Assembly (NCBI GenBank): GCA_020137815.1
Contig: CM035358.1
Location: forward strand, 7,812,001 to 7,876,000
From: Hormiphora californensis
Lineage: Eukaryota; Animalia; Ctenophora
DNA length: 64,000 nt
Direction: 5' to 3'
Part shown: piece after piece, positions 11,953 to 44,079 of the stretch
How the letters are laid out: each line of letters begins with the position of its first letter
Position numbering within the stretch: position 1 is the stretch's first letter
Notes under the pieces: model-generated
What the model saw: the letters and a program-made list of their open reading frames with translations, nothing else
Told to the model about the DNA's origin: nothing
Databases searched by the model: none
Program-made: the position numbers and the translations under genes

Positions 11953-12411
<459 letters not shown>

Positions 12412-17272: not shown

Positions 17273-17344
17273 TTAATGTGGATCATAAATATCGTATGTT
17301 AAAGTGAGAGGTGCACGAAAACGAAAGTTGGAATAATATCTAAA

Positions 17345-18028
17345 TATATATACCGCGAGTGCACATATCACTCCCGCTGTGCGCGACCATTTGCACGCTG
17401 AAATATGCACTGTGCTTCCGCGGGAGCGTGCAGATATAGAGGGAGCGGGATATAAGTAAGAAATGTGTTCTCACAGTGTTTTTACACCTTAATCACACAC
17501 AAACACACAGAATATGACTGACAAGGTACTACACGACACAAAGTCTGTCAAATTACACTCACTCTCCCTCTTTCTCTCACTAATTATCCCCTTATCACGT
17601 TTTGTTGTTTGCTATTTCCAAGAATTCCAATCTCCCTCTCTCGCATCTCTCTCTTCATCTCTCTCTTCTTTTCACTGTTTCAAACTATCAGACATTGTTT
17701 CCCTTGTGTGTAAGAGTTGCAGTAGTGTCTGTTAGTATTTTTGAGTGTGTTTTTGCTTAGTTTGGACCTTGTTTTGTCACATCTCTGTGTGTGTAACCAC
17801 CCAAAATTAAGATTGTTTTGCTTGTAAAGTGTTTTCTCGCGGAATATATACTCAATAACGTCCTGCACGGCATGTGCAAGCGCCCCTATATCGCACTCGT
17901 TTCACTCGTGCAATATAGGTGTGAAATGCACTCCAGCTCCGCTGTCGTGCATTTCACCTCCATATACGCTCTGCAGTGCAGAGCGTATATGGCGCGCTTG
18001 CACTGCGTGCAGAACGTTATGTACTATA
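17345..18028 (+). mobile_element. Non-coding element with internal complementary region and 3' hairpin cassette (E1)
   Basis: Left end TATATACCGCGAG and right end GTGCAGAACGTTAT are both complementary to adjacent halves of 17836-17883; three hairpins at 17885-17992. Confidence 0.7.
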
Positions 18029-18062
18029 AATTGTGCATAACATTCCTTGGTGTCTAATTAGA

Positions 18063-18812
18063 AGTTTGGTGAAAATATGACGTCTCAATGTTGTGTTTGA
18101 AATTCATGTGCTGTGCATGCACGTGCAAGCTTCAAACACATGAGTTAGAAACATGGGACCTTCACCAACATTTGGCTCCAATGCAACCTATTCTCGCTCC
18201 GCGAAGAATAGGCTCCCGGCCCGTGGACAGCAAGAACTCACGTGCGCGCGATGTAAAGCACGTTTTTCAGCAAATCCCGCGCGACAGACTGTTTTGGGAG
18301 ACCTTTTTAGCTGACCTAGCACTACTCAAACGTCAATTACCGCCTCATTTCGCATCGTGATGAATCGGCGGGTATTTTCCCATGCTCACAGGGCCATGAC
18401 GATTCTCCCAGTACCCGCAGATTGTCCCAGGACCGAGTAGGAGCTTGCAGCCAGGTCTTTAAAGAATTGCCCATGTTTAGAGTCAATTTTGACCCACTAT
18501 TCCTCAAATGCTGATACTCGCGGGTATTTTCCGTAAAACTAGAGACAATTACCTGCCAGGAGCAACAAACGAGATGCAAATCGGTTCAGTAGTTCCTTGC
18601 AGCCAGGTCTTTGAAAAAGTTTGCTCTAAAATCAATAACGGGCCGGAGGCCTAGATGTGAGATCGATCTCGGTCGCTGCGCGACCTCGATCTCACTCAGG
18701 CATCAATGTGGCCAACACCAACATGTTTGTTTTGATCCGAGGAACACTTTAGTCCCATGCTTCTAACTTGTGTTTCAAACACAACATTGAGACGTGATAT
18801 TTTCACCAAACT
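18063..18812. mobile_element. MITE with ~45-bp TIRs, unclassified
   Basis: AGTTTGGTGAAAATATGACGTCTCAATGTTGTGTTTGAAA ... TTTCAAACACAACATTGAGACGTGATATTTTCACCAAACT. Confidence 0.7.
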
Positions 18813-19136
18813 TTAAGAACATTGCCGGCTCATGATTTTTCAAATCCCCATGATGTGTATTGGTTTTCCAATCCACAACTGTTGATCAATACATGCGGCG
18901 TTAGAGAGAGTTGTCTAGCTAGACTGTGTTTTGCGCACCCCGTCCCTTTACAAATGTAAACAAGGGAGGGTTAGAACATAACAAAGAGAGAGAAAGCAGC
19001 GAGAGAATAAATATTTAAAAAAATGTTGTGTCCTCTTTTTTTATTTTCCGTGTAAATTCATATATCTCAACCTGGCTGATCTATAGGTAATGTCTGAACA
19101 AGCATTGTTCGGTGTTTCAACACACACATCGTCACA

Positions 19137-19791
19137 CTAATCCCAGCATTCGAATTCAACTGCATCCCTCCTGCTAGCACAACACCGACAGAGAGAGAAC
19201 ACCAAACTAATGGCAAGTAGGATGATAACAACAACCCCCACATAGACCACGATGGCGGTTTTATCAACTCCAATGTCCTCACAGATACTCTGAATCAGAC
19301 CAATACGGAGAATTGGAGCAATGAGGCGGTACTTTCCAATCTCTTTGTAGAGGGGGTATCTGCATAACAATAGTGAATTAGGTGATTATCATGTCATTAT
19401 AGCTGAAGACGTCTGACATAGATCAGTCGAAAGCTCCTGTTCTTAATTGAATATTAGTACTGCAAAATCGTTGTTTCTCTTTAATAGGTGATTATCATTT
19501 ATCAGTATTCGCAATATAACTTTCTAATTTTCTTTTTATTTTTTTCAATTACTTGGGTCGTCTTGAGTCTGTGCTAAAGTTCTAACAAGTTCAGAGATCT
19601 GCGCTAAAGTACAATGTAGAGCTCACAATTACATACTTGACCATGGTGCATTGCACTTTGTTAGCCACACTCTCAAGGAAACTGGAGCCCAACCCCAGAT
19701 CTGTGGAGACCTGATTATACAGGTCATCGAACAGGTCACCTTTAGTAGCTACAATCGCTACCACGAACACCAAACACCACTTGATCATCAT
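19137..19791 (-). CDS. Small type-I membrane protein, paralogue A (signal peptide, short ectodomain with 2 Cys, TM, Cys-rich juxtamembrane tail); no family recognised
   Basis: Exons 19791-19637, 19573-19553 (21-nt microexon), 19359-19137, phase-consistent GT-AG; MMIKWCLVFVVAIVATKG... and AIVVYVGVVVIILLAISLVFSLCRCC. Structure conserved in paralogue B. Confidence 0.8.
19393..19484 (+). mobile_element. Solo 3' end of the Penelope element (hammerhead + tail) inserted in an intron, 14-bp TSD
   Basis: Matches 27857-27944; flanked by TAGGTGATTATCAT (19379-19392, 19485-19498); absent from the paralogous intron at ~22810. Confidence 0.88.
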
Positions 19792-20060
19792 TACAATGTA
19801 AAACAAAGAAGGCCTTACTGTAAACAAGGCTCTTCTGCTGAACGACAAATTATACAAGGAGATCTCTGAGTGTTTGAAATTAACTTCCTTCGACCCGTGC
19901 TACACGTGTATGATATGCTTGTTATAATGCTTGCTAAAGTGAGATACTGGGCAGGCTGAGCACTGTTAAAATATGGGTCCTTCTTCATGATAAACTTCTG
20001 CTCTAGTTAACAGTTGTAAGGTCCATCTCAGGTCCAGCTCTGTAGTAATAACAGTAAGGA

Positions 20061-20948
20061 CTTGGTGACATAGACACCTGGCGCGACCCCCCCCCCGGGC
20101 ACAGGTGACGGCTCCGCCCCATTTAGGGTTGTTTCTTTCAAGGGATGTTGCACGTGATCCACTGGACCGATTTGCATCCAGTTTGTCGCAAAAGACTACA
20201 AATTGATCTTACTATACTGGAAAATACCCGACAATTTTGTCTGTCAACATGAAGCGGGTCAAAATTGACACTGAAGTCAAATCTATAATCTGACTTCCGT
20301 GAGTTTCTGCACTACACCCATGCGGTTTAGAAGATATTGGGAGATATGTTGATGCAATTAGCATAAGAATTTGATGCCGAGTATTTTCCATTAGGGGAAA
20401 CTCTAACTGAATGCCCGCGCAGTAATGGCGTCCCATCACTGGTAAAAATCTAATTGAATGGAAGGAATGATGGAAGAACGCGCGACCATGCTCGTGTGTT
20501 TGTCATCGCGCCCTACGTAAAAGCCTTTTTTTGGCAAAATTTGTGGCAAATCCTGACGCGCACAGAGTGATGACTCCCATTATCAGTTAGATTTTTACCA
20601 GTGATGGGACGCCATTACTGCGCGGGCATTCAGTTAGAGTTTCCCCTTACTCAAAAGGCCTCAATCTATCTCCCAATATCGTCAGACTCAGTCTAAACCG
20701 CCTGGGAGTGGTGCAAAAACTCTCGGAAGCCAGATTATATATTTGACTTTAGTGTCAATTTTGACCCACCTCCTGCTGAAAGACAAACTTCTCGGGTATT
20801 TTCCAGTAAACTAGGACCAATTTGCAGTCTCATGAAACAAGCGGGATATAAATCGGTCCATTGGATCACGTGCAAGATCTCTTGAAAGACACCTGTGTGC
20901 GGGGGGGGGGGGGGGGGGGGTCGCACCAGGTGTCTATGTCACCAAAGT
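20061..20948. mobile_element. MITE (TIR CTTGGTGACATAGACACCTGG) with nested PIF/Harbinger-type MITE at 20394-20646; second family copy at 59590-60080
   Basis: Terminal inverted repeats read directly; the nested element has GGGGAAACTCTAACTG TIRs and TTA TSD. Confidence 0.8.
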
Positions 20949-21205
20949 TTAAGGTCCAGCTCGCCAAGAATAATGGGGGGGGGGGTAACTTTTGACGGGT
21001 AGTGTTTACGGATTCACATGGCCCGTCAAAAGTCTGAAATTAGGGCAGGTCTGAATTTAGGGTAGGCCTGAATTTAGGGTAGGTCTGAATTTAGGGCAGG
21101 TCTGAATTCAGGGCAGGCCTGAACTTAGGACAGGTCTGAACTCTCGATACAATGAATAATGTTTTGTTAATGTTGACGACTTGAAGATTCATTACAGGAA
21201 AAGAT

Positions 21206-21245
21206 AAACAGACGGTTTCGTCGTATCACGACATCATCAGTACTC
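21206..21245 (-). ncRNA. Penelope-type minimal hammerhead ribozyme motif (orphan, possibly degenerate)
   Basis: Minus strand GAGUA-CUGAUGA-U-GUCGU(gau)ACGAC-GAAA-CCG-UC-UGUUU: core boxes and 5-bp stem II present, stem I relies on G-U pairs. Confidence 0.55.
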
Positions 21246-21521
21246 AAATTAATCTTTAATTAACACACCAAGATCTCAAAATGTTACATATCATACTTAA
21301 TTTTATTTTTTTAGTGTTAAATAATTAAGAACATTGCCGGTTTATGATTTTCCGAATCCCCATGAGGTGGATTGGTTCCCCAGCTGCAGTTGATCAATGC
21401 ATGCGGCGTGTATGTTAGAGAGAGAGAGAAATCAGCGAGAGAAAATATATCTAAAAAAATGTTCTGTGTCCTCTTTGTCACACTTTTTAACTTTTTATGT
21501 CACCTTCCTCATGTTATTTAT

Positions 21522-22539
21522 GGTAGGCGGTAAATGTTAACCAGATCTGAGAGAAAACGTACGTGCAAAACCACGTTTTTGTCCATAACTCAGTCATTTC
21601 TTGACCAATTTGCAAAATCTTGGGTGCGTTGGAAAGAAGACATTAAGCTCTTATATACCCTGCTAACTTAAATAATGCGCCAGTGGCGAGAAGTCCCACT
21701 GGCACGCTCTCAATAAACATCCAGTCCAGCGGCAGATTATTTCCCACTGGCAGGTTATTTATTTTTAACTCCTATGCAACATTCAAAGTGTGTGTAAATG
21801 ATCAGTTCTTACTAAAATACAGAGGGAATACTATGTGCAACACTTACACACTACATTGGAGAGAAAGAAACAACACATTCCGTCAATTACTCTCCCTTTT
21901 TCTCTCCATTTGTTTCACTATCTCAATTCCTCTGTGTTATGTCTGGCATGCCCCATATCTTGTTATTTCTTTCTCTCTCTCCTTAGTAACTGTTACCAAA
22001 CAATATACACTCAATTGAGAGATATTTTTGACTGTTTCTCAGTTCTCTTTGTGTGTTTTGATTAGTGTTCTCTCTCTTGTTTGTGTGTAATACTTGAAAC
22101 AAACAACTAAAGCAGGGTATATAACCTATAAACTCTTGCCAAAGACGCGTTATAGGTTTAAACCCCTCCGCCTCTCCCTCGGCTACGCCTCGGGATCGTC
22201 GTCGTGATTTAAACCAGTTTATCCGCCAGCGGCGGATAAACTACAGCTACCTTCTCCCAGCGGCGCGCTGGGAGAAAGGTATCTGATATAACGCGCCACT
22301 GGCAAGAGTTTATACCTCATTTAAATGAGCCCAATAAAACTAAAATTGGCGCAAATTGCGCGGCGTCATGGCGCAAAATGCGCGTTTTTGCCACCGCGCC
22401 ACGCAATTTGCGCCAATGAGAGATCTCAATATCCTCTTTCCAATGAGCCAAAGATTTTGCAAATTGGTCAAGAAATGGCTGAGTTATGGGCAAAAACGTG
22501 CGAAATTCTCACAGATCTGGTTAACATTTACCACCTACC
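21522..22539. mobile_element. MITE with GG termini and 9-bp TSD (Mutator/Merlin-like)
   Basis: GGTAGGCGGTAAATGTTAACCAGATCTG ... CAGATCTGGTTAACATTTACCACCTACC; TSD GTTATTTAT (21513-21521, 22540-22548). Confidence 0.85.
21652..22317 (+). mobile_element. Non-coding element with internal complementary region and 3' hairpin cassette (E2), nested in the MITE above
   Basis: Left end TATATACCCTGCT, internal AGCAGGGTATATA-ACC-TATAAACTCTTGCCA (22111-22141), right end TGGCAAGAGTTTATA; hairpins at 22155-22281. Confidence 0.78.
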
Positions 22540-22555
22540 GTTATTTATATCCGTC

Positions 22556-23060
22556 TCAATTCGTATCTCTCTTGTATATATATTCTAACTCTAGTTGAAT
22601 AACAATACCGACAGATACCAGCCACGAAACTGATACCAAGGAGGGTAATAACAGCTATCCCCACATAGATCACTATGACGGTGTCACGAACTCCAATGTC
22701 CTCACAGATACTATGGATCAGGCCGATACGAAAAAGTGGGACAATGAGACGGTCCTTTAGCGGTAGTTTTTCAATGTCCTCGAAGTCTCTGCATAATAAT
22801 AGTGAATTAAGTGATTATCAGTATTCAGTTTAAACTACAATACTTGGGAGTTGGGTCCTCTGACACTGAGTCTGTGCTAAAATTTTAACAACAGAGCACT
22901 GTGCTAAAGTATGAACAATATAGAGCTCAATTACATACCTGACTAACGCACACTGCACTTTGTTATTCAGATTCTCCCACCACGAGCTCAAGTCATCGAA
23001 CAGGTCACCTTTAGTAGCTACAATCGCTACCACGAACACCAAACACCACTTGATCATCAT
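22556..23060 (-). CDS. Small type-I membrane protein, paralogue B
   Basis: Exons 23060-22939, 22876-22844 (33 nt), 22788-22556; same signal peptide as A; ...RIGLIHSICEDIGVRDTVIVIYVGIAVITLLGISFVAGICRYC... Confidence 0.8.
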
Positions 23061-23474
23061 TACAATGTAAAACAGGATCTACTACACACTGAACCGACAA
23101 AATACAACAAGAAGAAGATCTCTGATCACTATACTGGATGGGTAGATCACTGTCTAAATATGGGCGCTGTTATACCAGGGGCGGGTAGATCACTATTAAA
23201 ATCTGGGGGCTGAGTACTGGGCGGAGCATTGTTGACAGTAATACGCCCATCCCAACTTTATGACATCGCCTAGGGTGGGTCAAATTTATCCGTGTTTTAG
23301 GAAATATAATTTACATGCGGGTAATCTATAGATCACAAACTCAGATATATCATCAGCCCTCTGTGACCTCAATTGTTATGTTCACGAAACACAGTCTAGC
23401 TAGGCAAGACCTCAACGCATCAGAACTCCGACTTCTATCCAATTTCCTGGAAAACAGGTATCCAATGTTATCCG

Positions 23475-23548
23475 CAGGAACCGACCGAATCAGGAAATAC
23501 TGGTCCCTGATTGGCTGATAACCAGTAACGTGACCTAAATAACGAGTT
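23475..23548 (-). repeat. Short interspersed repeat fragment (related copy 33360-33422)
   Basis: CAGGAACCGACCGAATCAGGAAATACTGGTCCCTGATTGGCTGATAACCAGT...CCTAAATAACG is largely the reverse complement of 33376-33422. Confidence 0.7.
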
Positions 23549-23754
23549 GGGGGGGGGGGCCGGCTGAAGTTTTTGAAGTTTTTGAAGTCAACTTCAAAAA
23601 CTTCAAAGAGAAACTTAGGGTGGAAAACTTCAAAAACTTCAAAAACTTCAAAAACTCATATCTCCTAAACCGTTGGAGATAGGCCCTATGTTGCTTCATA
23701 ACTCTTATATAAACTTGCATATTCCGAACAAGATGCACCCCTTTAAAAAGCCTA

Positions 23755-25545
23755 TTCAATTCAATTCAATTCAATTCAAATATCTTGCGCAAATACACAG
23801 GATATTTAAAAAAATAAACCTCCTCATTAGTCATTAATAACACACCAGCTCAGCAACAAACAACATTCATCAAGATTGGAATTGATCAGGACGCCACTGC
23901 AGGATAGAGTTGTTGTTCGATTGAGATGGATACCCGATAATAGGTGGAGTATCAGGGATGAAACAAAGGTAGACACCCAGGCGTGATTTAAAATGGGAAA
24001 GTGTCGGTGCCTCCTTAACATGTCGTGGTAGAGTGTTCCACAGTTGGGGGCCCTTAACTGCAAAAGAACCCTCAAACATGGTGAGATTTGATCGTTGAGC
24101 TTCATAAGAATATCTGGGAACGATTGCTCTTGGTCCAGAACGGGGGCTCTCCACAAAGCCCATGTTGGTGGTGTTCGGTGATTCACCATTGTATATTTTC
24201 CAGACCATTATCATAGTGTATCTCTCACGACGTCTTTGAAGTGACAGTAGACACAGGGATCGGAGTCTCTGCCAGTAGTCCAGGCCTTTAAGGCCGGCGA
24301 TTTTACGAGTAAAAGCACGTTGAATATCCTCTAAACGACTGATATCGCCAATCTTGGTGGGGGACCAAAGAGTACAACAGTAGTCCAGGTGTGGACGCAC
24401 CAGGGATTTGTAGAGGGTAACCATGGTGCCCCGAGAACGGGACCTGAATGCACTGAGGGTCCAGCCAGCAATACGTCTCGCCTCTGATATTACACGAGAT
24501 ATCTGGGCTGACCATGAACCGTCGGAGGAGAGAAGAACGCCAAGATCACGAACGGTACGGGAAGGGATAATAGCTCTACCGTCTGAAAGATGATATGAAT
24601 AGTTCTCGGCACTGAAGGGCATTTCCCTGAGAGATGATGTGTGATTTAGTGTATAGTTCATCACTTCAAACTTTGCTTGGTGGAGCGACATATTGTTGAT
24701 ATCTGCCCAAGAAATGATGCTGTTGAGATCCTCTTGAAGGAGGACCTTATCCAGTAACGTTCGTATAGCAGAGAAGATTTTGGTATCGTCTGCAAACGAC
24801 AAGGACGAGCCGTGTTTGACTACAGAATCTAGGTCGATCACATATATGAGAAATAGGATTGGGCCTAGAACTGTCCCTTGGGGTACACCACTAATCACTT
24901 GAGCGAAAGAGGAGGGGACACCGTCGACCATAACAGTTTGCATCCGATCGGTAAGGAAACTACTTAGCCAAGATAAAAGTCTGCCCTTGACACCATATTT
25001 CTGGAGTTTTTCCAATAGAATGCCAATGTCCACCTTATCAAATGCTTTCTCAAAATCGAGGTAGATAACATCTACCTCGAGGAGACCATTGAGATTGTTC
25101 AGTAGGTTGTCAATATGACGAGTGAGTTGCGAGAGACAGCTCCGCTTACTTCTGAATCCATGTTGAGAGTCATTAAAAAGATTTTCTGACTCAAAATAAG
25201 ATACAAGTTGGGAACGAACAACTCTTTCGAAAGTTTTAGTAATGTGACTGGTCAATGAAATTGGCCGATAGTTTGCAGCACATGACTTAGAACCCTTTTT
25301 GTAGAGGGGTGATATGAACTGCTGCTTCAGGTACGTAGGAACTGCACCTGAGTTGAATGATTTACACCACAGGATATACAAAGGGTATGATAGAGATGAC
25401 CGACAGTCACGTAGAATTCTGGCGGGAATATCCCCTGGTGGGCCTGCGGAGTAAGGGTTCAGATCGGCTAACGCCTTCTCAATGTCCGATGGAGAGAACA
25501 ATATGTCTGAAATACTGGACGTTGATGGCGATAAACCATTAAAAC
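23755..25545 (-). mobile_element. 5'-truncated non-LTR retrotransposon, CR1/L2 group; RT ORF 25501-23870
   Basis: NYRPISLTS, QHGF, YLDFEKAFDKVD, SGVPQGTVLGPILF, FADD, RDLGV; 3' (TTGAA)n tail at 23755-23778; no APE domain left. Confidence 0.93.
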
Positions 25546-25777
25546 TGGTCTAGCCAAAAAAAAGTCATGCGCACACACAAAATTATGATAATATCCCATT
25601 ATCCCTCGAATTAGATGAGGTGGAGACTTCATTTTGGCACGTACCCCCACTAACTCGAGGCCGCTGATGATTTTGGTGACCATATTTTTTTCACTACTCC
25701 CTTCATAAAAAATTTGCATTTTGTGAAACTGGCAAAAAGGGTGTGCCCCTACTCCCGTAACCGACCCGATCCCCCGC

Positions 25778-27945
25778 TTGGCCCCTCTACTCCAATCAGC
25801 AACGAGGAAACTTGGAGAGTCAGTTGATGCAGCTGCCTCATACGAGATCTCGTCTATCCTGTCCTCCTTCCAACCATCCTCGAGGCGATCCAATCTCTCT
25901 ACTCCCCACCGTCAAGCTCTCAAGGACCTCCAGGAGAAGAAGTCCTCTCTCCGGTTCCTGCCCGCTGATAAGGGTAACGCTACTGTTGTCCTTGCTGAGG
26001 AGCAGTATCTCGAGAAAGTGAACGACCACATCTCCTCTGCTGGAGCCTACGAGCTGCTACCGTCTAATCCTACCGCCTCTCTACACCGCCGACTGGATGC
26101 TCTCCTGAAGGATCTACAGACCCGGAAGCTACTCTCTGAGCCGCAGAAGAAACAGATGAGACTGACGAACCCCCGTTATCCTCAACTGTACGGTCAACCC
26201 AAGATCCACAAACCTGGAGCCCCCATCCGTCCTATTGTCGCCTTCTACAACAGCCCTCTCTCTGCTCTCCACTCCTTCCTATCCTCCCTTCTCAAACCCT
26301 TGGCTGCTTCCTCCCTCCGTCTCAAGGACTCTACAGACCTAGTCAACCGCCTCCGCTCCAGCCAATCCCCCTCTTTTCCCTACTACTTCTCTCTGGATGT
26401 GGTCTCCTTGTACACAAACTGTGACATGAGGGCTGCAGTGGACTCCACTATCAGACGTCTTGAGGAAACTCCTGATATCCTTCCTACTCCCCTCACTCCC
26501 TCTACTATCCGCTCTCTCTTGGACTTCTGCCTCGACAACGCCTACTTCGAGTTCAACGGAAACTTCTACGCTCAACGTACCGGAGGAGCGATGGGTTCTC
26601 CCCTCACCGTTATCCTGGCTGAGATTCGTGTTACGGAACAGGAACAACACGCTCTCAAGTCCTTCTCCGACCCACTGGGATCTTGGAACCACTTCGTTGA
26701 CGACGCCATAGGAGCTGCCAGGGATTATGATCACGCCGAGTCTTTCTTCTCCTACATCAACTCCCTTGCTCCAGATCTCAAGTACACCATCGAGCACCCT
26801 AAGGATGGACTTCTCCCCTATCTTGACGTCCTTCTCCATCCCGACCTCTCTACCTCTGTCTACCGGAAACCTACACATACCAACCTCTATCTCAAGTACA
26901 ACTCCTCTACTCCTGCCTCTACACGCCGCTCTGTTATCCAATCCTTAACCCGTCGGGCCTACAACATCTGTTCTCCCCAACATCTCGAAAAGGAACTCGA
27001 CACAGTCTACAACATCTGTCTCTGCAATGGATTTCCTCCCTACGAGATCTCCACTCTGATGTCTACTGTTCGGGACCGCCTTCTACACCCCAAACCGTCA
27101 AAATCCCGTCCTCCTTCTTCCTTCGTCCACCGTGTAGTCCTACCCTATCACCCGGACCTCTCCTCTCGACTCAAACGGACCCTCAACCGCTACAACATAG
27201 ACGTCACCTTCTCTTCCTCTTCTACCCTACGGAACATCCTCACCCAGACCAAATCTTCGCCTCCTTCTGATAGTACTCCCAACTCCATCTACTCCATTCC
27301 CTGCCGCGACTGCCCATCTTTCTACGTTGGCCAGACCAAGCGACCAGTGAAAACCCGGATTAAGGAACACGAATCAAACTTCTACAACAACTCTCTCTAC
27401 AACACCGATGGGAAGATGAAATCTGCTCCTGCTATCCACGCTCGGGAATCTGGACACACCATGGACTGGAATTCTACCTCTATCCTCTCCTCTTCTTCCT
27501 CCTGCCTCAGTCTAAATCTACTGGAACAAGCGGCTATTCACACTCTTCAACCGGCGATTAACCGAACAGATAAAGTTCCTACTGTCAACCTCCAATGGAC
27601 TCACCTTCTCCCCAGGATTGCTAACTCCTTCAAACCCCGTCCTGCTGGCATCTCCATCAAACCTAGATCTCCCAAACCTGTTTCCTAATTCTCTTCAGCT
27701 CGGATCACCTCTTCTCCCTTCCCGTGGATCACCTCCCCCATCCCCTCCTCTCGGATCGCATCTTCCTTCTCGGATCTCATCCCTTCCTCTCTCCTCCCCT
27801 CCCCGGATCCCATATCCTCTTCTCCACTACATAAACACTTTCATTTTTCATTGTTGTTATAGCTGAAGACGTCTGACATAGATCAGTCGAAAGCTCCTGT
27901 TCTTAATTGAATATTAGTACTGCAAAATCGTTGTTTCTCTTTAAT
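25778..27945 (+). mobile_element. Penelope-like retroelement, 5'-truncated; RT + GIY-YIG ORF 25778-27688
   Basis: ADKGN, YGQPKIHK, RPIV, SLDVVSLYTN, GAMGSP, FVDD, LPYLDV, YRKPTHT; GIY-YIG SIYSIPCRDC..YVGQT..RIKEH; 3' UTR carries a hammerhead motif. Confidence 0.95.
27858..27900 (+). ncRNA. Minimal type-I hammerhead ribozyme in the Penelope 3' repeat
   Basis: AUAG-CUGAAGA-C-G.CUGA(cauaga)UCAG.C-GAA-AGCU-C-CUGU: stem I AUAG/CUGU, stem II, palindromic loopless stem III (AGCU), as in dimeric PLE hammerheads. Confidence 0.75.
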
Positions 27946-28780
27946 TGACATGGCTAATTAGAAAATTCGAAAATCTGAAATTTTTAGTGAAAATGGGCCA
28001 AAATACTTAGTTCGGGGGAAGTTTATCCTCACGGTAAATTGGGGCCCGGTAAATCAGGGTCCGACAGTATCTATATTTAAAGTTCCTTTATCTCTTGAAA
28101 AACTAAAAGGGAATGTGCAATTGTGTAATGACCGATGACAGTAGGCTACTACAGTTATAGTTCAACTACTAGTTACTATAACAGTGTATGGTCAGTAGAT
28201 GGGCACAGATTTTATAAAATATAAATTGTGTGAAATACAGTCGGACCCCGATTTAACGGCACCCTCGGGGGAAAGGGTTTTGTCCGTTAAATCGGGGTGT
28301 CCGTTAAATCGGGGTAGAGCATATTTGGTCCATAAAACCCTATTTTTGTCCAAAATGCTATACTAAAACACCTCTAAGTGTTAAATGCAATGTCCATGTA
28401 TTGATTACATGATCATTTCTGATTAGAAAAAGAAAATAATTTTTTTTAAAATCAAAAAAAGTTATAAAAATTTTCTAAGGTACAACCATGTCCGAATCGT
28501 TTATTGAACCAGTGCATCTTATCGCATGTCTTGCTGCTAATTAGACGGTTCGAAACGAACCGATACGTGATACCATGCCGAATCGGGGCACTTTAAGCGG
28601 GGTGAGGAAGAATTCGAATTTCAAAATATCTTTTTCTCTGAAAATTTATGGGGAGCACCGATCAAAGCAATGACAATCATTCTGTAAAATTTTGCAAAAA
28701 AAGTTATGAAAATTTTTCAAAGGTATATCAACCACGTCCGAATCGTGTTTCTAATCAGTGCATCTTATCGCACGTCATGT

Positions 28781-31759: not shown

Positions 31760-32346
31760 CGTCATGTCGCTAATTAGACGGTTCGAAACGAACTGATACG
31801 TGATCCCCATGGGACCAGTTAAGTTTACCAAGCGTCAAAATTGCGATTCGATGGGCCTCATGGGGATCACATATCTGTTCGTTTCGAACCGTCTAATTTC
31901 CGGCAAGACATGCAATAAGATTCACCGATTCAAAACACGATTCGGACGTGGTTAATACACCTTTGAAAAATTTTCAAAAAATTTTCAAAAAATTTTTGGG
32001 GGAAATTTATCCTGCCGTTAAATCGGGGTGCCGCTAAATCGGGGGCCGTTAAATCGGGGTCCGACTGTAGTAAGTTGTGTTACTATTACTTATCAGTAAC
32101 ACTACTTTTCGATCTCAACATGAACAATAAGTACTATCTAATTCTTAACTTAGTAAATTTCCCTCTCTCCCTTACCAGTAGGATCCAAAGGAAGATAAAA
32201 CACAGAGCCAGTGAAAGGAAAAGTCTGTCTGTTCTAGAATACACGACGTCTCCTCTGAAACCACGAAGACTGTTCAACATCCACAAAACGAAACTTGAAC
32301 ACAATGTAACTGGGGTGCTGACCATCCCTCTCTATCTCTCTCTCTA

Positions 32347-32429
<83 letters not shown>

Positions 32430-32720
32430 CTCTCTCTCTTTTTCTTCTCTCTTTCTGTCTCCGTTAGTATCACACCTGTCGACTAACCTAATGTTGGGGC
32501 GATGTCATATTGTGATTGATATTCAACTGAAAAATAGTATATGGCACAGACAGACAGACAAACCGACAGACAATTAACAAACCGGCCAGATAAAAGCGTT
32601 GGATGGTTTTCTTAGTAAGAATTCTTTTAACTAATTCTCCTGGAATATTGAATAATAAACCTTAAGGAATTATAGTCCACAATGGAACCCAACCCCTCAG
32701 CTCAACAACACGCCTCATTT

Positions 32721-32758
<38 letters not shown>

Positions 32759-33195
32759 TCTTTCTCTCATCACGCGATATTTGAAAGAGTGGTTGATGAA
32801 ACTGAATTAAAATCTAAAAGCTCAAGTTGATCTCTCTGTTAAAGGATCACACCATGGGGGAGAATTAAAACCTCTCAAGCTGATCCCCTCTGTCTGATGA
32901 GGCCTCTCTTCTGTGCAGTGGGAAATATTGATCCTGCTTTGTATCCTCTATATGTTAGACTTTCATTTATCATTTCATCACCCTCATCACGAATTTAACG
33001 ACTTCAAACATAGGATTTATTCGCTATTGTTATATCAGCTCCTCCGGGGGGGGGGGGGGGGGGGTCGGATAAGGTAAATTCTTTGTCCATCTTCTTTTCT
33101 CTTTAAACCGCCCACACAATCAGTCAGCAGTATTTAATCCAACTTTCAAATCTCAGAATTCAGTTGCCTCCCTGTAGTTGTTGACCCAGTTTACA

Positions 33196-36100
33196 ATGAT
33201 GATACTACATCTTCTAATCTTTCTGCCTGCTGCAGTTTACAGCGAGGAGCACGTAAGAAAAATAATGTTACTGAGCCGTCTAGCCGTGCAGCAGACCCGA
33301 TCTGAGCGCACTATCAGCTGCTTTGTTGGTGTCAACAAGTCAGGCTCAGTTCCTACAACAACAACCAATCAGAACCCGTTATTTAGGTCACGTGACTGGT
33401 TATCAGCCAATCAGGGACCAGTTGTTGTCAGGCTCAGAATGTTGGAAAACAGTCGTTCCTATAACCCAGGTTCATGTCACGGCTATTTCAATTTGGCACT
33501 GAGACCTCAGACCTCAGACCTCAGACCTCAGACCTCAGATCTCAGGGCTCAGTGACGGTTATAGTCGAGATCTCCGGGCTATTCTTGGATATTCCCTGGA
33601 ATCTCAGAGAATAACCGGTTATTCTCTGAGAATCCAGGGAATTTCTCAGGGAAGAGCCCCAGATCTCGACTATTATAGTCTCAGGGGTGTCTGATGAGGC
33701 CCTCTCAGGGGTAGTCTCAGGGGTAAATAGCCGTAACCTAAATCTGAGGTTTAGTCACGACTGTTTTCCCCCAATGGGGTCTGGCGCCACCTGACAGGTG
33801 CACGGCGTATAACGGCGCCAAGTTTTCATCTTGCCCCCTTTTTCCTAATTAGATAATTAAACTGTTTCTGCATGGTAGTGTAACCATCAAATAGTATATA
33901 TAAACAGACAACTTTTCTCTGCAGTGGAAAATTCACGCAGATGATGCTGATGCCACTCAAACGGAAGATATCAATACAGGATACACTGACTACTTAGATT
34001 CTGATTACAAATTCAATGTGACCGTTAACGGAACAAGTGAAGAAAAATCATTTTACCTAAATGTTCTGAAAATGTCAGAGTTGCTGGAAAATCAAAATGT
34101 GGTTGCTAGTAAGTGTGAATTAGAATTAGAATGTGAGGAGTGTGAAGTGTGAATTAGAATTAGAATGTAAGGAGTGTGAAATATGACTTAAAATTAGAAT
34201 GTGAGGAGTGTGAAGTGTATTTTCAACAGCAACTTTCTCAGCTTCCATCATTTAACAATGGAATTGTTATTATGAAGTAACTATACTATAAAATGATTCT
34301 ACCCACTGTGTTCCGAACCCAATAACGATACATTCTCCCCAGCCTGTAAATACGTGTTGTTCAAGGATTACAAAATGTTCTCCGATGCAAGTGCAAAATG
34401 CCTTTCTTTGCCCGACTACTGGCCCATAACTGCAGTCGGTGGTAAGTTGTGCCATCATAGTACAAGGTGTTCATATGGGATCTTTACAAGCGTTGGGCTT
34501 CACCCAGAAAAAAGTTGACAAGATTAGGTCATGAAACTTCATACTTGGACTATTCTATACCCTCATTCAAGGTTCCTGGGAGTTTTGGAGCTCTAGCACC
34601 CCCGGAAGTGTGTTTTTGGCATCAAAACTACCAGAAGGAATTTTCTGCTGGTGCTGAGACTTTGCTAAAATGTTTTTTGGGTATTTTCTATGTCAATCCC
34701 AAATTTTCATGGATATTGGATGTGTTTTACGGACTCAAAATTTCGATAAAAGTGGCTGGAAAGGCTCGAAAACGGCTCAAAAACGGCAAAAATCGAGTCT
34801 TTCCAGCAGTTGGTGATCTGTAGAATCTGCGATACTTTGTTTAGTAAAGGATGAGACACATAGTACTCAATAAGTATAATTTACTGATATCATGGCCACC
34901 AGCCTTGTTAACCGATGTTACCATGGTTACCACACATCTTGTCCCAGATAAGACAGGAAGCTTGGCAGACATCTACAGCTATAAAGATAACCTAGAAGTG
35001 GTGATGTTGATGTATATGGCTTGGGGAATCCCTTATCTTGTAAGTAATGATCTCTGATCTTTCTCTCTCTTATATTGTAGGTAACGATCTCTCTTTAGTC
35101 TTTATCTCTCTTATAGTGTAAGTAACGATCTCTCTTTCTCTCTCTTATCTTGTAAGTATAAACGATCTCTCTTTCTCTCTCTTACATTGAAAGTAACAAT
35201 ATCTCTTTATATCTCTTATAGTGTAAGTAACGATCTCTCATTCTCTCTTATCAATTGGTACTATTATCATATTCTAATAGTGATCATGATGATAATTGAT
35301 ACATAACAAATATATAATCGGTATAAGTGCTAAGCTAAACATGACCCTCTCGGGCATACCGTATCTTCTCTTTCTTAATTGAAATAAGCAATATAACAGT
35401 GATAAGTTTAGCTTATTTATTATTTAATATCACTATTGTTCCTTTATTGATTCTAATAAAACTGTACGTTCAGGGTGATGGTAAGAAGTTTGACATTTGT
35501 CCCTCTCTCTCATCACTATGGTGTGGGTTGTTACCCCTACCAACTAGATAATGTTACCATGGTTACCCCTACCAACTAACTACTCTTACCATGTTACCCC
35601 TACAGGGTAATGGTAAGTTTGACGCTAGAAACTGGGCTTGGATCAATCTCCAAAAAGTGTCTGACACATATAACGAATCAGAGACGGTAAGTGTTTTATT
35701 CAAATACTTTTGATCAAAAAAATAATAATATATTAATGGTATTAATTATTTGATTTTTTTGATCTCATCCTTGATTAGGCGATGTTTAGACAACAATACA
35801 AGACGATAATAATATTAATTAAATAATATTTGTATTTGATCATATTGGTTTAATATTACATCATCTAACCAGGGAGTGAACTATAACAAATCGGACTATG
35901 TATGGGGTAACGGAGAGAACCCTAGTTGGGACCAGTGGATGAAAGATCAACCTGATATGGCAAAGTGAGTTTCTCTCTTTCTCTGATCACCCGTTATTTA
36001 GGTCAACTAAGCTAAGGGGGTATACACAGCAGGCAAACTGGCAGGTTTTCACGCGTTTGTGTGTAGAAGGCAAAAGTGTTGCATGTTTTCTCTCTTTTTT

Positions 36101-39100
36101 GAGTTAGACGGTAATTCTAAGGTGGGGGCCCTACCCCCACGCCCTTTTTGGGCCCGGGGCACTTGCCAGTGCTATGATCTCTTTTTTAATTTCTTGATTA
36201 TTTCCTCTTGATTACCCGGTATCCCCAATTTCAAGATCCTCAAAGACCGGGGATAGACAAAAGAATGTACGAATAAACAAGATAGGAACATGGGATGATA
36301 GCCACGCCTATGCATTGACTCCTTTTATCTGTAACTATTGTGGTAAGTTACCATGGTTACCCGTACCAACTAGCTACTGTTACCATGGTTACCCCTACCA
36401 ACTAAATACTGTTACCATGGTTACCCCTAACAACTCACTACTGTTACCATGGTTACCCGTACCAACTAGCTACTGTTACCATGGTTACCCCTGAACGGGG
36501 GGAGAATATACACTCGGTGGGGTGATCTTAGGCAGGTGGGTGGGTGATAGGTTTGTTCAGATTGCGGGTTCGTCACCCAGGATTTCTCAAAACAAAGGGG
36601 TTCACCGGGTTCGTAACTGTAGTCTTGGGGGGTAATCACTCACACAATCTTCAATCTTCACTGGTCACACAAACTTTGGTGCACATGCACGCAAAGTAAA
36701 CGCTCACATCGACATCAGATACGGTCAAGAAACACTGGTCACTCAAACTTTGGTGCACATGCACGCAAAGTAAACGCTCACATCGACATCGGATACGGTC
36801 AAGAAACACGGGCAAGTTCTCCCTCAAGCAAGGATGGTAGGTGCTCTCGGGCAATAAAATGCACACTGTCTCACTCTTTCACTTGGCTTTAAATATCCCG
36901 ACAAACAACAAGTCACGTGATATCCGTACCAGAAACAATCCGGAACAACACCAAAGTTCTGTACCACTTCTCCGACTCGAACTGTCGACACCGTCCAAGT
37001 AAAAGAGGCGATACTATCGGACAGACCCGTCTGACTGACTTTCACTATGGCTCTCTCTACTCAACTACCTATTCTCACTCTAAGCTATCTGACAGTCTTA
37101 GTAAGCTCATTGTTCACACCTCACTTCACCAGAGCTCTCGCACATGGCTGGGAAAACGTGACAACTCACCACTAAAACTAGGGAAAGGGATACTGGGGTA
37201 ACAGGGGTATCTCTCATATCCCACATTCACCCTCTCCTGTGAAACAGAAATTGACCCATTACTCCAGGTTAGAAAATATTCTCTTCTCAAAGCTCTACTG
37301 ACTACTCTAAGACTAAAAGAAATTTAACTCTACAAGAACTCACTCAATATAAACTCTTCTCATATATGAAATTTCGTCTATGGCGGTTATGGTTTATCTG
37401 GACAAATACTCTCAGGGACAAACATTCAAACAGACTAACTCAGGGACAAACTAACACAGGGATAAACTAACTCAGGGACAAACTAACTCAGGGATAAACT
37501 AGCACAGAGACAAACTAACACAGGGACAAACTAACACAGGTACAAACTAACTCAGAGGCAAACTAACACAGGTACAAACTAACTCAGAGGCAAACTAACA
37601 CAGGTACAAACTAACACAGAGACAAACTAACTCAGGGACAAACTAACTCAGGGACAAACTAACTCAGGGACAAACTAACACAGGGGCAAACTAACGCAGG
37701 GACAAACTAACGCAGGGACAAACTAACACAGGGACAAACTAACTCAGGGACAAACTAACACAGGGACAAACTAACTCAGGGACAAACTAACACAGGGACA
37801 AACTAACACAGGGGCAAACTAACTCAGGGACAAACTAACACAGGGACAAACTAACACAGGGGCAACCTAACTTAAACAAATAAACACAAGGACAAAAGGA
37901 CAAAGGCAGCCACTAACATTCAAGCAGACACTTAGACAGCCACCATTTTCTAACAACAGTCACATAAAAACCATAGATTATCAACAATTATTTGTCCAGA
38001 CGAAACCCACAACACGTCTTAAGATCTGTCATAAGGCGCTCTCAAGATACTCAAAGCTAAAGATGATAATATAAAGTTATAATTCTCTAATTACTCTCAG
38101 GATTTGCTCCATCTGGTTCTACAAACTGCAAAGAAGAGTGCACATGCACGTCGATTCTTCACAATTCTCGAATTACTCTCAGGATTTGCTCCCTCTGGTT
38201 CTGCAAAGAAGAGTGCACATGCACGTCGATTCTTCACAAAACCAGACGGGCAACTCAACTTTATGACCGAAAGGTACAAGCATACATACACAAGTTCCTA
38301 TCAGTCACAAAAATGGCTCAAGGTGTTACTGATAAAATTCGCCTATAACAGTTGGTCAGACTGATACTGGAATGTGGTGACGGGGACCAAACCTTCACCA
38401 CAAATGAACTATCAGCAACTTCTCGTGTCAATTCGTATAGACGATACTACGATCGAACACGGTTCGTCAGCTAGAGTGTAGCACTAGAGTCCGCACACCA
38501 TTCCGCCAAATAGTGAAGGCACGATCCAACTTGGAGGCCATGCTCGTTCGCGTGTACAACGGTGCAAGATCAAAAAATTATCAGAAGCGAGCTTTTCAAA
38601 CGAAACTGATAAGTGATATGTGAGGAAGCTACTGTTACCATGGTTACCTCTACCAACTAACTAATAGTTTGAATCACATGCCTGTCACATTCAGAGGGGG
38701 AACACCTTAAATTCTGATCATTCATCCAGTTGTGACGGTGAAACTGAAAATAGTTTCCTTTCTTAAAAACACCTGCTGCTCCCTAGTTCCCTAAGTATTC
38801 TAGCCCTATACCCCAAATTGAATGTACCCGTTACGTACCCTAGTACCCTACTACCATGATAGCTGTACCCTACCCCAACTACCCTATACAGTATTTAGTA
38901 CAGTATTTAGTACAGTATTTAGTATTTAGTACAGTATTTAGTACAGTATTTTCTACCCCAACAGGAAAATACATGGTATTTGCTGAACATGTTAGTTGGG
39001 GAACTGCCCAGGAGTTGTGCACTGAATACGGCCTAAGCTTCGCAATGGTATGTTACACTTTCACTTTCACACTTTCAATCATATCAGTGGGCACGGTGTG

Positions 39101-40080
39101 AAACCTCGACTAGGTATACTGTTTTGTAGACTGGACCTAGGTTAAGTATTTTTTAGAGCTTGTAGTGGAGAAACGATTTTCAAAAACGGTACGCAGACAC
39201 ACTGTTTACGTGGCTCGGGGGAATTCAATTATTAAAACATACTTATTCAGCATGATATAGCACTTGCACAAGCTCCTGCGTACCGTTTTTGAAAATCATT
39301 ATTCCACCACACATCCCTATAATATCTCCATACCTAGTATCCTCCTCATATGGCAAGGTCATAAAATCCTTCCTCATCTCTCTTTAATAATGATGTACAA
39401 TAATTACAGGTGAATAGCGAGGAAGATAATAATGAATTAATTGGGGCAATTAATATGACGCTGGGATCAGATTACAGTAATCCGAGATTCAACAACTCTA
39501 ATTGGGTAACTAATTAACTCATTAAATAATTGTATAATTGTGGGGTAACCATGAAACATACTGCCTTATACTAAGCTTCGGTTTGTTTGGGCAGATTAAC
39601 ATTTTTTTCATTTACTTTCTACTTTGGGTTGATTATAATTCCCACTGCTCCTTCATAAAGATAATTTCTACTTCCAACTGCTCCTTCATAAATATGGTTT
39701 TCAATTAATTCCCACTGTTTTACAGGTTTGGATTGGTGTTGAGGAGGTTATGGATGACAATGGTATGGGAACTAACGTGTGGGCTAACCATGATAACACC
39801 ACCCTCGGTTGGGACCCAGCATGGGCCTATAAGCACCAGCCCGACCACATGACAGTCGGTGGTGTAGGTAAGAAAATACAATTGTTCAGTTATAGATCGG
39901 TTGTTTATTTACTTGAACACTTTGAAATAATTTCTCTCCATTCTCTCAGAACAACGAGTTGTGGCGGTGTCCCGTATGACAGGACAGTGGGATGATTCTT
40001 TTGAATACAAAAAGAGGCCCTTTGCATGCATGTGTCATAACGAATGTGCGAATGTGGTGACTGGTGACGACGAATCTTAA
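33196..40080 (+). CDS. Secreted C-type lectin with two CTLDs (both QPD/WDD), 10 exons
   Basis: Exons 33196-33252, 33925-34108, 34948-35039, 35606-35686, 35873-35964, 36236-36342, 38965-39047, 39410-39505, 39726-39867, 39950-40080, phase-consistent. Signal peptide; WAWINL..W.KDQPD..GTWDD..PFIC; SWGTAQELC..VWIG..QPD..GQWDD..PFAC. Confidence 0.87.
35030..35250 (+). repeat. Degenerate tandem copies (~6) of a lectin exon end plus 5' splice site
   Basis: CTTATCTT|GTAAGTAA(T/C)GATCTCT recurs about every 35-40 bp after the true donor at 35039/35040. Confidence 0.75.
36493..38626 (+). mobile_element. 2.1-kb intronic insertion, absent from the second lectin copy; contains a 16-bp minisatellite (37430-37870) and a possible decayed Penelope GIY-YIG remnant (~36830-37030)
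   Basis: Comparison with 46800-46875; flanked by AGCTACTGTTACCATGGTTACC on both sides; frameshifted GAIK.H...NTKVL...QVKEAIL. Confidence 0.55.
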
Positions 40081-40227
40081 GTGAAATTTAATAACTGGAG
40101 CTCATAGGCTAATGTTTTAAAACTATAGTTGAACAATTTTTTGATCAATTTATGTTATTATACTTGTAATTATATTCAGCATTCAAAATTAAAATACTGT
40201 GTTTTTAGTACTTTGACTAATACTGTA

Positions 40228-42305
40228 CACGGTGTCCCTTATGGTGTGCGGACTCTAGTGCTACACTCTAAGTCTACAGAGGACTCTATATCTAAATTTA
40301 GATTTAGATAAAGAGTCCAAATAAGTCTAAACTCTAGGAGGACTCTATGTCTAAAAAGTCTACAAAGGGCGGACTCTATATCTAAAAAGTCTAAAAAAAG
40401 TGGACTCTATATCTACATAAATCTAAATTAGATATAGAGTCCGCCTTTCGCCGCGAACTCGAGATTTCGGCCGTTAGGCCGGAAACGAGAGTTTGCTCTA
40501 CCCCTATACTAATTTAGAAGTGTTAGGGCCGTTATTTGGGTTCGAGGTTAGGGTGGGGGTTAGTGTTAGGGTTAGGTTTTGGGTTGGGTTAGGATTTTAG
40601 ACATAGAGTCCGGGTTGGAGGATTTGGCGCCAAAATGTACTAGAGGACTCTATACCTAAAAATTCTACACAGGGCGGACTCTTTATCTAAAAAGTCTACA
40701 CAGGGAGGACTCTTTATCTAAACTTTTTTCAAAATCTAACTGTAGATAAAGAGTCCGTTTTTAGATATAGAGTCCGCCTTGGATTTAGATAAAGAGTCCG
40801 TTAGCACTAGAGTCCGCCCACCGTCCCTTATTAAGGAGGTGAAACCTCGACTAGATAAAGTTTTTTGGAGACCGGACCTAGGTTACGTATTTTTGACCGA
40901 GGAATCCGAAAAACATAAAATTAAAATCGAAAACGTAGCGGTTTTTGCGTAAAACGGTAAAAACTGTCATTTTTCAGCGATTTTCGACTTTTTACGCTTT
41001 CTAGAGATTTTAAAAATATTTCCTTACAAGATATGATCTTGTGCTTTTAGACTAATAAAATAAAATCGATTTGCTACAAATTGGTCCCGGGTTTGTGTGA
41101 TTTGGTCAAAAGCTCTCTTTACTGTGGCCCATCAAAGATGGCCACTCTGCAAATACGTATTTGGCTCCTGTAGCCGCAGATGTAAACCAAAATAAAATTC
41201 ATTATACACCAAAATTTGCGTCTTCTCAAGGCAAACAACCTGGTTTTTACGAAATTTGATTTCATGCAGGCGTTCAAATATTACAGCCGAAAAACTGGTA
41301 CAGTGGATTTCGGAAATACCCCTACTTCAACAAATCCTAATCCAGATAAGATTTCGAAAAATATACATGTTCATACATGAAAATGAAGCTCAGACAAATG
41401 CCAACGTGATGCAAAAAACGGGAAGTGTGTAACTTATTTCGTTTAGACGCTATAGCCCAAATAAAAGTGCTTATTTTTGCATTGAAAACACCCTCTAAAA
41501 ACCATAATTTTAGACAATTTCTGACAATTTTAAACAAATTCTGTCCACAGGGGCTAAGTTGGTGCACTGGAGGTGACATTTTATTCGTATTGCATTTTTA
41601 GACAGATTTGCTATTTTTCAGGGCTTTTAGAGGGTGTTTTCAATGCAAAAATAAGCACTTTTATTTGGGCTATAGCGTCTAAACGAAATAAGTTACACAC
41701 TTCCCGTTTGTTGCATCGTATTGGCATTTGTCTGAGCTTTATTTTCATGTATGAACATGTATATTTTTCGAAATCTTATCTGGATTAGGATTTGTTGAAG
41801 TAGGAGTATTTCCGAAATCCACTGTACCAGTTTTTCGGCTGTAATTTTTGAACGCCTGCATGAAATCAAATTTCGTAAAAACCAGGTTGTTTGCCTTGAG
41901 AAGACGCAAATTTTGGTGTATAATAAATCTTCTTTTGGTTTACATCTGCAGCCACAGGAGCCAAATACGTATTTGCAGAGTGGCCATCTTTGATGGGCCA
42001 CAGTAAAGAGAGCTTTTGACCAAATCACACAAACCCGGGACCAATTTGTAGCAAATCGATTGTATTTTATTAGTCTAAAAGCACAAGATCATATCTTGTA
42101 AGGAAATATTTTTAAAATCTCTAGAAAGCGTAAAAAGTCGAAAATCGCTGAAAAATGACAGTTTTTGCCGTTTTACGCAAAAACCGCTACGTTTTCGATT
42201 TTAATTTTATGTTTTTCGGATTCCTCGGTCAAAAATACGTAACCTAGGTCCGGTCTCCAAAAAACTTTATCTAGTCGAGGTTTCACCTCCTTAAGGGACA
42301 CCGTG
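40228..42305. mobile_element. Chapaev (CMC)-like foldback element with ~660-bp inverted arms and 4-bp TSD
   Basis: Ends CACGGTG...CACCGTG; TSD TGTA (40224-40227, 42306-42309), confirmed by the empty site ACTGTAGAC at ~50980 in the duplicate. Confidence 0.85.
40243..40822. mobile_element. MITE with GG termini and 9-bp TSD inserted in the left TIR of the Chapaev-like element
   Basis: GGTGTGCGGACTCTAGTGCTA ... TAGCACTAGAGTCCGCCCACC; TSD GTCCCTTAT; internal GGACTCT(A/T)TATCTA repeats. Confidence 0.85.
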
Positions 42306-42314
42306 TGTAGACTA

Positions 42315-43029
42315 TTATAACGCCCACTGCGCATTTTTTTGAGAAATAACACCCGCGCGGTAGCGGGCTGATATGACTGCTTCCGAAATGATAAATCTCA
42401 TAACGCCCGCTCCGAAAGTGCAATTTATTACACGTAAGAATTCACCCAAAAAGGTGTGAAAACTCTTCCTTTTGTGTGTGTGTACTGTTGTGTACACACT
42501 GTTGCAAATAGAAAGAGAGATTAACACAACAAGGGACGGGGGAATGGCGACAAGAGAGAGAGACAAGAGAAACATTGGTAATCCTTATCTCTCTCTATTT
42601 AATTAACACCCAATAGTTCGCTTGTGTGTGTGTGAGTGTCTAGACATGTCTAGACATGTCTGGAGTTGAAAAGGGAACATATTTGAAGGATTGGCATGAG
42701 TTGTGTTGCCCTCTCTCTCTCTCTCTGTAATCATTTGTTGTTGAACTGTGAAAGTTTGATGATGTTGAATAGTTTGTCAAATTGAGTTGAAAAACTTGAA
42801 AGGGGATTAGTGTTGTTCTCTCCTTGCTTGCAGTGGGCGTTATATGCTATAACACCTTATAAGGTGTTATAGCGATATATTTGATACACATAAGGCCTTA
42901 TGTGTATCAAATATATCGCCCTCACTACGTTCGGGGCGATATTGCATATCCGCAAGGAGCCGATATGCGTGCATATCACGCCCCGCGCGGGGCGCGATAT
43001 ACAGATACACACCGGTGTTATAGCACATA
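42315..43029 (+). mobile_element. Non-coding element with internal complementary region and 3' hairpin cassette (E3)
   Basis: Left TATAACGCCCACTGC, internal GCAGTGGGCGTTATA-TGCTATAACACC (42830-42856), right GGTGTTATAGCA; absent at the empty site GACTATAATAG (~50986). Confidence 0.8.
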
Positions 43030-43059
43030 TAATAGGATAGACTATAATAGGATTCTAAG

Positions 43060-43688: not shown

Positions 43689-43729
<41 letters not shown>

Positions 43730-44038: not shown

Positions 44039-44079
<41 letters not shown>

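Follow-up and report, generated by a model that had tools for sequence, protein, structure and literature searches.

Animal Cryptons, mobile elements of the tyrosine recombinase group, were reported to lack terminal repeats and to be accompanied by abundant non-autonomous derivatives (PMC3212892, Kojima and Jurka 2011). Animal CryptonA and CryptonI also lack the 4-6-bp terminal direct repeats of the fungal and oomycete CryptonF and CryptonS (PMC3212892), and fungal CryptonA is likewise devoid of terminal repeats (Glomhopper, PMC13465315). Eulor5 and Eulor6 are old non-autonomous Cryptons, and salmon Crypton-N1 and CryptonA-N2 are non-autonomous as well (PMC5753468). Here we describe three non-coding elements, E1, E2 and E3, in a 64,000-nt stretch of the ctenophore Hormiphora californensis (assembly GCA_020137815.1, contig CM035358.1, positions 7,812,001 to 7,876,000 of the forward strand), called the window below. 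On the basis of their sequence we consider E1-E3 likely, with good confidence, to be non-autonomous CryptonA-type elements.

Three other systems have to be compared with these elements. Recombination of a folded single strand is known from integrons and also from the cholera phage CTX. In integron cassettes, recombination acts on the attC site as a folded bottom strand, in which the spacer is unpaired and the terminal structure varies; replication then resolves the product (PMC8946536). Helitron2 elements have an 8-15-bp 5' repeat that starts with T and has its partner immediately upstream of a hairpin, and they make no target-site duplication (TSD) (PMC3627910). DIRS1-like retroelements carry inverted terminal repeats (ITRs) of 66-316 bp. 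Their internal complementary regions (ICRs) measure 85-130 bp, and the 3-bp junction is the complement of the terminal triplet (PMC3266345).

Layout, hairpins and ends of E1-E3

E1, E2 and E3 are all built as A…A'-spacer-B…hairpins…B', with arms A/A' of 13-15 nt and B/B' of 11-15 nt. The layout was part of the original prediction, which was made by reading the letters of the window, and both a directional layout scan and fold predictions bear it out. E1 occupies 17347-18026 of the plus strand, with a TA-repeat ambiguity at the left (17345-17347) and right (18025-18028) ends. Its arm A (17345-17359, 15 nt, one mismatch to A') is answered by the internal segment 17836-17869, which consists of A' (17836-17850), a 4-nt spacer and B (17855-17869). 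A cloverleaf of three hairpins, B' (18006-18020) and the tail follow at 17870-18026. E2 (21652-22319, plus strand, 668 nt) lies in a T-run within the arm of a miniature inverted-repeat transposable element (MITE) and has one T in common with the target. The layout scan places its arm A at 21652-21664 and the internal segment at 22111-22154, where A' (22111-22123) and B (22127-22154, with a small internal bubble) are separated by the spacer ACC. B' and the tail extend over 22287-22319 (B' 22287-22314), and the 5-nt tail CCTCA is followed by T. E3 (42313-43027, plus strand, 715 nt) has TAT on both sides, so that its register slides by up to 3 nt (to 42316-43030). According to both fold and layout scan, its arm A is at 42316-42330 and A', with B directly after it, at 42830-42856; B' and the tail (43014-43027) are again followed by T.

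Fold predictions place the hairpins downstream of arm A in E1-E3, and the DNA folding z-scores are -9.7 for E1, -15.7 for E2 and -11.5 for E3 (20 shuffles each). The layout scan of the window gave 15 matches, namely E1-E3 and 12 matches within other repeats, which we judged to be foldback, terminal inverted repeat (TIR) or satellite-like repeats; six shuffled windows gave 1, 0, 0, 0, 0 and 0 matches. Since 12 of the 15 matches fall in other repeats, the layout by itself lacks specificity in DNA so rich in repeats, and therefore a second mark is needed. One such match, at 16408-16910, is a TIR element and was rejected as a chance match.

The bulged hairpin provides the second mark. Its motif consists of a stem, a tandem G·A pair, a further stem of 2-4 bp and a GNA loop. 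When both strands of the 64 kb were scanned, the motif was found at four sites, all of them on the minus strand and all within the elements, compared with a mean of 0.05 in 100 shuffles. E1 has two of the sites, a GAA-loop tip at 17893-17911 and a GGA-loop hairpin at 17921-17957; E2 and E3 have one GTA-loop tip each, at 22175-22195 and 42919-42935. The recurrence of the hairpin had been noticed before; its strand specificity is added here. In DNA, tandem G·A pairs and GNA triloops have unusual stability, and they represent a DNA-type fold.

The three elements had been called sequence-unrelated, which overstates the case. A weak, colinear alignment joins E1 and E2 (z 4.3 relative to shuffles that keep the composition, with z 2.2-3.4 for reverse-strand controls), so these two may be distant kin.

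Ends and insertion sites were read from the contigs of four public runs, which come from three studies and two organisms. Summed depth over E1 and E2 reaches 1e4-1e5 compared with about 1e2 in neighbouring low bins, depth not being equal to copy number. An empty-site joint from 17344 to 18026 was present for E1 in three of the four runs, and pieces from other copies end at 17347 and 18028. The ends of E1 are blurred by TA repeats, and both registers are 1 nt off the paralogous join. Empty-site joints across E2 run from 21649 to 22323 in three runs and from 21651 to 22320 in one of the four, in agreement with the earlier view that E2 interrupts a MITE.

The left end of E2 is marked by a piece from another organism that begins at 21652. 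At the right end, depth in run X3 falls from 54,191 (22312-15) and 42,979 (22316-19) to 17,281 (22320-23) and 1,943 (22324-27), and the other three runs drop in the same way. Among 32 listed pieces, 10 reach at least 22319. Another 13 end at 22313, where in most cases the record itself ends; loose ends from the first organism start behind 22320-22326. Because the depth fall, the piece ends and the loose ends coincide there, we place the right end of E2 at 22319/22320 and not at 22317, as had been proposed.

E1 and E2 are high-copy insertions without target duplication, and both are inserted just 5' of a T. E3 is probably an insertion too, on the evidence of one empty site in the window: the paralogous locus near 50988 gives a footprint of 715 nt with a 3-nt TAT overlap. 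The absence of E3 from the duplicate locus, as originally reported, is real and its footprint is readable, but E3 is not missing alone. The duplicate locus lacks about 2.8 kb, i.e., the TGTA-flanked TIR element at 40228-42305 plus E3. The empty sites of E1-E3 show an overlap of 0-3 nt, which agrees with the predicted lack of a conventional TSD. A single register suits all three elements, with T as the first base, CA or TA as the end, and then T and AT-rich DNA. The 4-6-bp terminal direct repeats of CryptonF/S were not found on them: the repeat is 1 nt in E2 and 3 nt in E3, while E1 is ambiguous, with 0-4 nt of TA repeat.

Relatives in public contigs and the L193 recombinase gene

We used the E2 hairpin tip as bait in public contigs. 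It identified 16 loci in viral contigs, five of which, from one AT-rich IMG/VR taxon, form a gene-less family of 0.9-1.1 kb with the same layout and a single rod hairpin. The copies have five distinct left flanks, with an A before a T-run, and four distinct right flanks starting with T; the T-run leaves the exact cut ambiguous by 2 nt. One head-to-tail junction was found in this family. Its joint is covered by the internal complement and equals the predicted circle joint. The family loci are L145 (about 8100, reverse strand) and L139-L143, with an inverted pair in L140.

In metagenome contigs the tip was required to have TATA on both sides. This gave at least 121 stretches, of which 120 were examined, 80 with flanks. 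A long hairpin surrounds the tip in 45 of the 120 loci; together with five loci just under the cut-off, they form 23 families. In the four families with at least three readable right flanks, the flanks start with TA nearly always. Arm A was found in 10 of the 29 hairpin loci that have at least 300 nt upstream, some of these cases probably being due to chance. The exact E2 junction had no match in metagenome contigs, nor did the E2 right end in viral contigs. A scan of prokaryotic genomes with the hairpin tip alone gave 121 loci with bacterial record titles. Among 152 motif sites from the viral and prokaryotic loci, the layout filter was passed only by the insect-like family and one bacterial repeat. 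The same tip without the A/A' layout occurs in phage intergenic DNA and bacterial repeats (L003, L005, L007, L148, L152 and prokaryotic loci).

The mismatches along the hairpin arms favour one strand, the bottom strand. In 18 family representatives, tips excluded, the top strand has 53 C·T against 13 A·G mismatches and 35 A·C against 11 G·T mismatches, and therefore G·A and G·T predominate on the bottom strand. This strand also gives the better fold in 15 of the 18 representatives and in E1-E3.

The link to an enzyme comes from L193, a metagenome contig of 1,384 nt that was picked by the shared tip and not by its gene, A/A' pair, spacer or tail. It is a near-complete element in which an exact 15-nt A/A' pair brackets a frameshifted gene. 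The gene has a QRICH1 domain (Pfam, E 2.8e-13) and a recombinase GLRG-EH motif. It shares its strand with the G·A/GNA hairpin, and about 250 nt separate its start from the hairpin. The homologues are DUF3504 proteins (PF12012) with the R-K-H-Y pattern, some of which match the phage integrase family (P0007: PF00589), and the structure model of one homologue, P0005, matches QRICH1, Cre and integron integrase. When L193 is read like E2, it starts with TTATACC after an A, its A' and B are separated by a spacer of 3 nt, and it ends with CACA before TAT. The counterparts in E2 are TATATACC, a 3-nt spacer, and CTCA before TTT; E3 has CACA before TAT. By its sequence, the L193 gene is a frameshifted CryptonA (DUF3504) tyrosine recombinase gene inside an element with the same layout as E1-E3. 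Searching 162 six-frame sources with a profile built from 139 relatives gave a match to L193 with E 3e-55 and none in the window.

A second locus, L241, gave a weak recombinase-like match in the same position and on the same strand as the L193 gene (E 0.41 pooled, 2.7e-4 alone), and its Atlas leads are Integrase_2 (0.90) and ResT-TelK (0.89). The predicted structure of the protein is too poor to be used (pLDDT 37), the protein has no homologue but itself, and its profile comparison with A1 is not significant. This open reading frame (ORF) possibly represents a divergent Crypton lineage. It is an orphan ORF of 345 aa (L241:386-1420, plus strand) beside the hairpin, with three hairpin-tip-like repeats nearby. 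The profile also matched an unrelated-looking integrase fragment in L190, which was set aside, being of bacterial type and on the opposite strand, with a hairpin score under the cut-off.

For the Pfam search we took 90 of the 131 ORFs of at least 85 aa from the 45 hairpin loci, omitting most ORFs of L220, a phage-like locus, and some short ones. These 90 ORFs, from mostly short contigs, contain no Helitron domain, and no reverse transcriptase (RT) was found among them or in L193.

A proposed folded bottom strand and competing explanations

The L193 gene and the mismatch bias of the arms support that part of the original prediction which described non-autonomous tyrosine recombinase (Crypton) elements with a single-stranded intermediate; its DIRS-type templating did not survive. 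We favour, somewhat above even chance, the fuller reading that the bottom strand of CryptonA-type E1-E3 folds into an integron-attC-like site that is cut by the recombinase.

Such a mechanism could work as follows. The bottom strand would be exposed on the lagging-strand template or in a cruciform, so that B could pair with B' and A with A'. Both element ends would thereby meet on the internal A'B segment and form an attC-like site. A partner recombinase acting in trans would release a single-stranded circle by one strand exchange. In the joined ends of the circle, two short helices would surround an asymmetric bubble, and the cloverleaf would take the role of the variable terminal structure. 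The circle would then enter an AT-rich target, between N and TW, by a second single exchange, giving an atypical Holliday junction that replication would resolve. The scheme predicts that there is no TSD, that a match of 1-3 nt is sufficient and that the donor copy is kept in place; the last point would fit the high copy number. A place as one strand of a folded recombination site suits the internal complement better than the role of a template.

A number of observations weigh against this interpretation. The strand bias reflects selection on a single-strand fold and is not proof of cutting by a recombinase. The shared tip was itself the bait of the scans and is common in phages and bacteria too. 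The enzyme link consists of one clear and one weak locus among 45 hairpin loci, and L193 has a single, rod-like hairpin in place of a cloverleaf. No further CryptonA loci came from two scans of viral contigs (A1, P0020), and the broad alignment A2 contains no stretch of sufficient conservation for such a scan. No autonomous partner of E1-E3 was found, the 64-kb window being without a recombinase. No circle or tandem junction of E1 or E2 is present among the 15 joints listed of 228, and three contigs of the second organism depart from E2 at 22311-22315. Finally, Helitron2 has the same topology, and E2 lies in a T-run, at a site between two T residues.

According to one alternative, E1-E3 are CryptonA-type elements that move as ordinary double-stranded circles, and the hairpin and internal complement serve second-strand priming, cruciform formation or protein docking. 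We consider this rather unlikely, though the double-stranded circle is the published model, proposed by analogy to prokaryotic elements (PMC3212892). The same hairpin tip in phage and bacterial DNA would suit it, as would the fact that the best solved folds for P0005 after QRICH1 are those of Cre, a double-strand recombinase. However, the ends and the target have only 0-3 nt in common, fewer than the 6-8 bp of the spacer in a typical recombinase site. Complementarity in the joined-end site comes only from the internal A'B segment and thus needs a single strand, and the mismatch bias runs along the arms.

The second alternative is that E1-E3 are non-autonomous Helitron2/Helentron elements (HINEs) moved by a RepHel protein of the HUH type, A/A' being asymmetric terminal inverted repeats and B-B' an enlarged 3' hairpin. 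In E1-E3 an 8-15-bp 5' repeat does lie 0-4 nt from a 5' T and has its partner just upstream of the 3' hairpin. A nick 5' of a T suits HUH chemistry, and the middles of E1-E3 are of low complexity. But the 3' repeat lies 176-196 nt from the end, compared with the reported 20-60 nt (PMC3627910), and insertion between two T residues is seen in E2 alone; E1 and E3 do not show it in any register. FoHeli1/2 have their GAA loop on the top strand, E1-E3 their GNA loops on the bottom strand. The lack of Helitron domains among the 90 ORFs of hairpin loci is a weak point, the contigs being mostly short, while L193 holds a recombinase gene. Altogether we regard a Helitron2 origin as improbable.

The last alternative, non-autonomous DIRS-like retroelements whose ICR templates circularisation of the cDNA, corresponds to the original explanation of the internal segment. 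The segment is indeed complementary to both ends and near the 3' end, the three bases after B' in E3 equal the internal spacer, and DIRS elements also have a tyrosine recombinase and no TSD (PMC3266345). However, self-comparison of the window revealed no ITRs on E1-E3, the elements have no NTT terminal triplets, and the internal complement totals only about 25-45 nt. Folds of the joined ends leave E1 with a bubble, E3 with a 5-nt bulge and E2 with an asymmetric bubble in which the 5-nt tail faces the 3-nt spacer; in none of the three do the spacer and the joined ends agree in both length and sequence. The first comparison in E2, of a GGT in the internal reverse complement with a CCT in the joined ends, has to be corrected: CCT is part of the tail CCTCA, and the spacer ACC is unlike the joined ends in both length and sequence. 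The templating idea fails because there are no ITRs and the joined ends are not matched by the internal segment; with an RT missing from L193 and the G·A tandems and GNA loops being a DNA-type fold, this explanation is already largely refuted and very improbable.

Neighbouring features and comparison with known systems

The animal DNA of the window is rich in repeats and contains histone genes, a long interspersed nuclear element (LINE), a Penelope-like ORF and interstitial telomere arrays. A Pfam search of 125 window ORFs gave no recombinase and no RepHel/Helitron domain, and the sole match of an Rfam scan of the window was a histone stem-loop. Divergent histone H4 (9487-9943, minus strand) and H3 (11953-12411, plus strand) genes are present, the 3' stem-loop following H4. 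A sodium-channel (ASC) fragment lies at 8594-8830 (plus strand) and a C-type lectin exon at 63258-63965 (minus strand). The LINE reverse transcriptase frame (23870-25549, minus strand) encodes 559 aa (RVT_1, E 1.7e-27). The Penelope-like stop-free frame (25727-27688, plus strand, 653 aa) has a weak GIY-YIG match (E 0.005) and RT-like motifs recognised by eye.

Two regions, 35530-40230 and 45942-50988, form a segmental duplication with 81-94% identity, each copy being broken by different insertions. The TIR element at 40228-42305 has CACGGTG termini with TGTA on both sides and is missing from the paralogous locus near 50988; a near-perfect foldback element of 1.46 kb (40831-42294) is nested in its right terminal repeat. 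Interstitial telomere-like arrays at 43060-44600 and 51000-51620 consist of TTAGAGGG repeats and then TTAGGG repeats. The TTAGGG repeats meet inverted repeats head to head near 43910, and the array is in part duplicated near 51000.

A search of the open-access literature found no description of this Crypton end design; Repbase and Dfam entries, which lay outside the search, may describe the hairpin. What is added here is the branched, three-hairpin (cloverleaf) version and a direct refutation of DIRS-type templating. The end design supplies exact substrates and a strand to test. It also offers a structure-based annotation route for very abundant repeats that resemble Helitron2 and are perhaps filed as such or left unclassified. 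If our interpretation is true, folded-single-strand recombination also takes place in animal genomes and in the lineage from which the ZMYM and QRICH1 genes arose.

DIRS1-like elements resemble E1-E3 in the internal segment complementary to both ends, the tyrosine recombinase and the lack of a TSD. In contrast to them, E1-E3 have no ITRs and no RT, a far shorter complement and a junction unmatched by the internal segment. With Helitron2, Helentron, HINE and DINE-1 elements they share asymmetric inverted repeats, a partner repeat by the terminal hairpin, a 5' T and the absence of a TSD (PMC3627910, PMC4067079, PMC11417382, PMC5148889). Unlike that group, they have a branched terminal module of about 180-195 nt and a target between two T residues in one of three cases, and no RepHel was found. 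CryptonA elements likewise have no TIR, no TSD and short, abundant gene-less derivatives, and a DUF3504-type gene stands within the same end design in L193. The CryptonA papers differ in that the intermediate they assume is a circular DNA; their available portions mention no split inverted arms, no strand-marked hairpin and no cloverleaf.

The integron attC site is the last system for comparison. E1-E3 differ from it in being eukaryotic and known from sequence alone, with neither an attI platform nor a cassette array apparent. They lack the GTTRRRY core and have G·A tandems where attC has defined extrahelical bases. The likeness lies in the architecture: an end arm at the unit start, and at the other end its complement, followed by a spacer, a stem with a variable terminal structure, and a short tail, with the bottom strand as the preferred fold and the crossover beside the unpaired spacer. 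By this analogy, and with the chances about evenly balanced, animal CryptonA elements may be eukaryotic counterparts of integron cassettes. Their folded bottom-strand site would be recognised by its shape, whether a single rod or a cloverleaf, and one enzyme could mobilise many sequence-diverse families by copying out and inserting a single strand.

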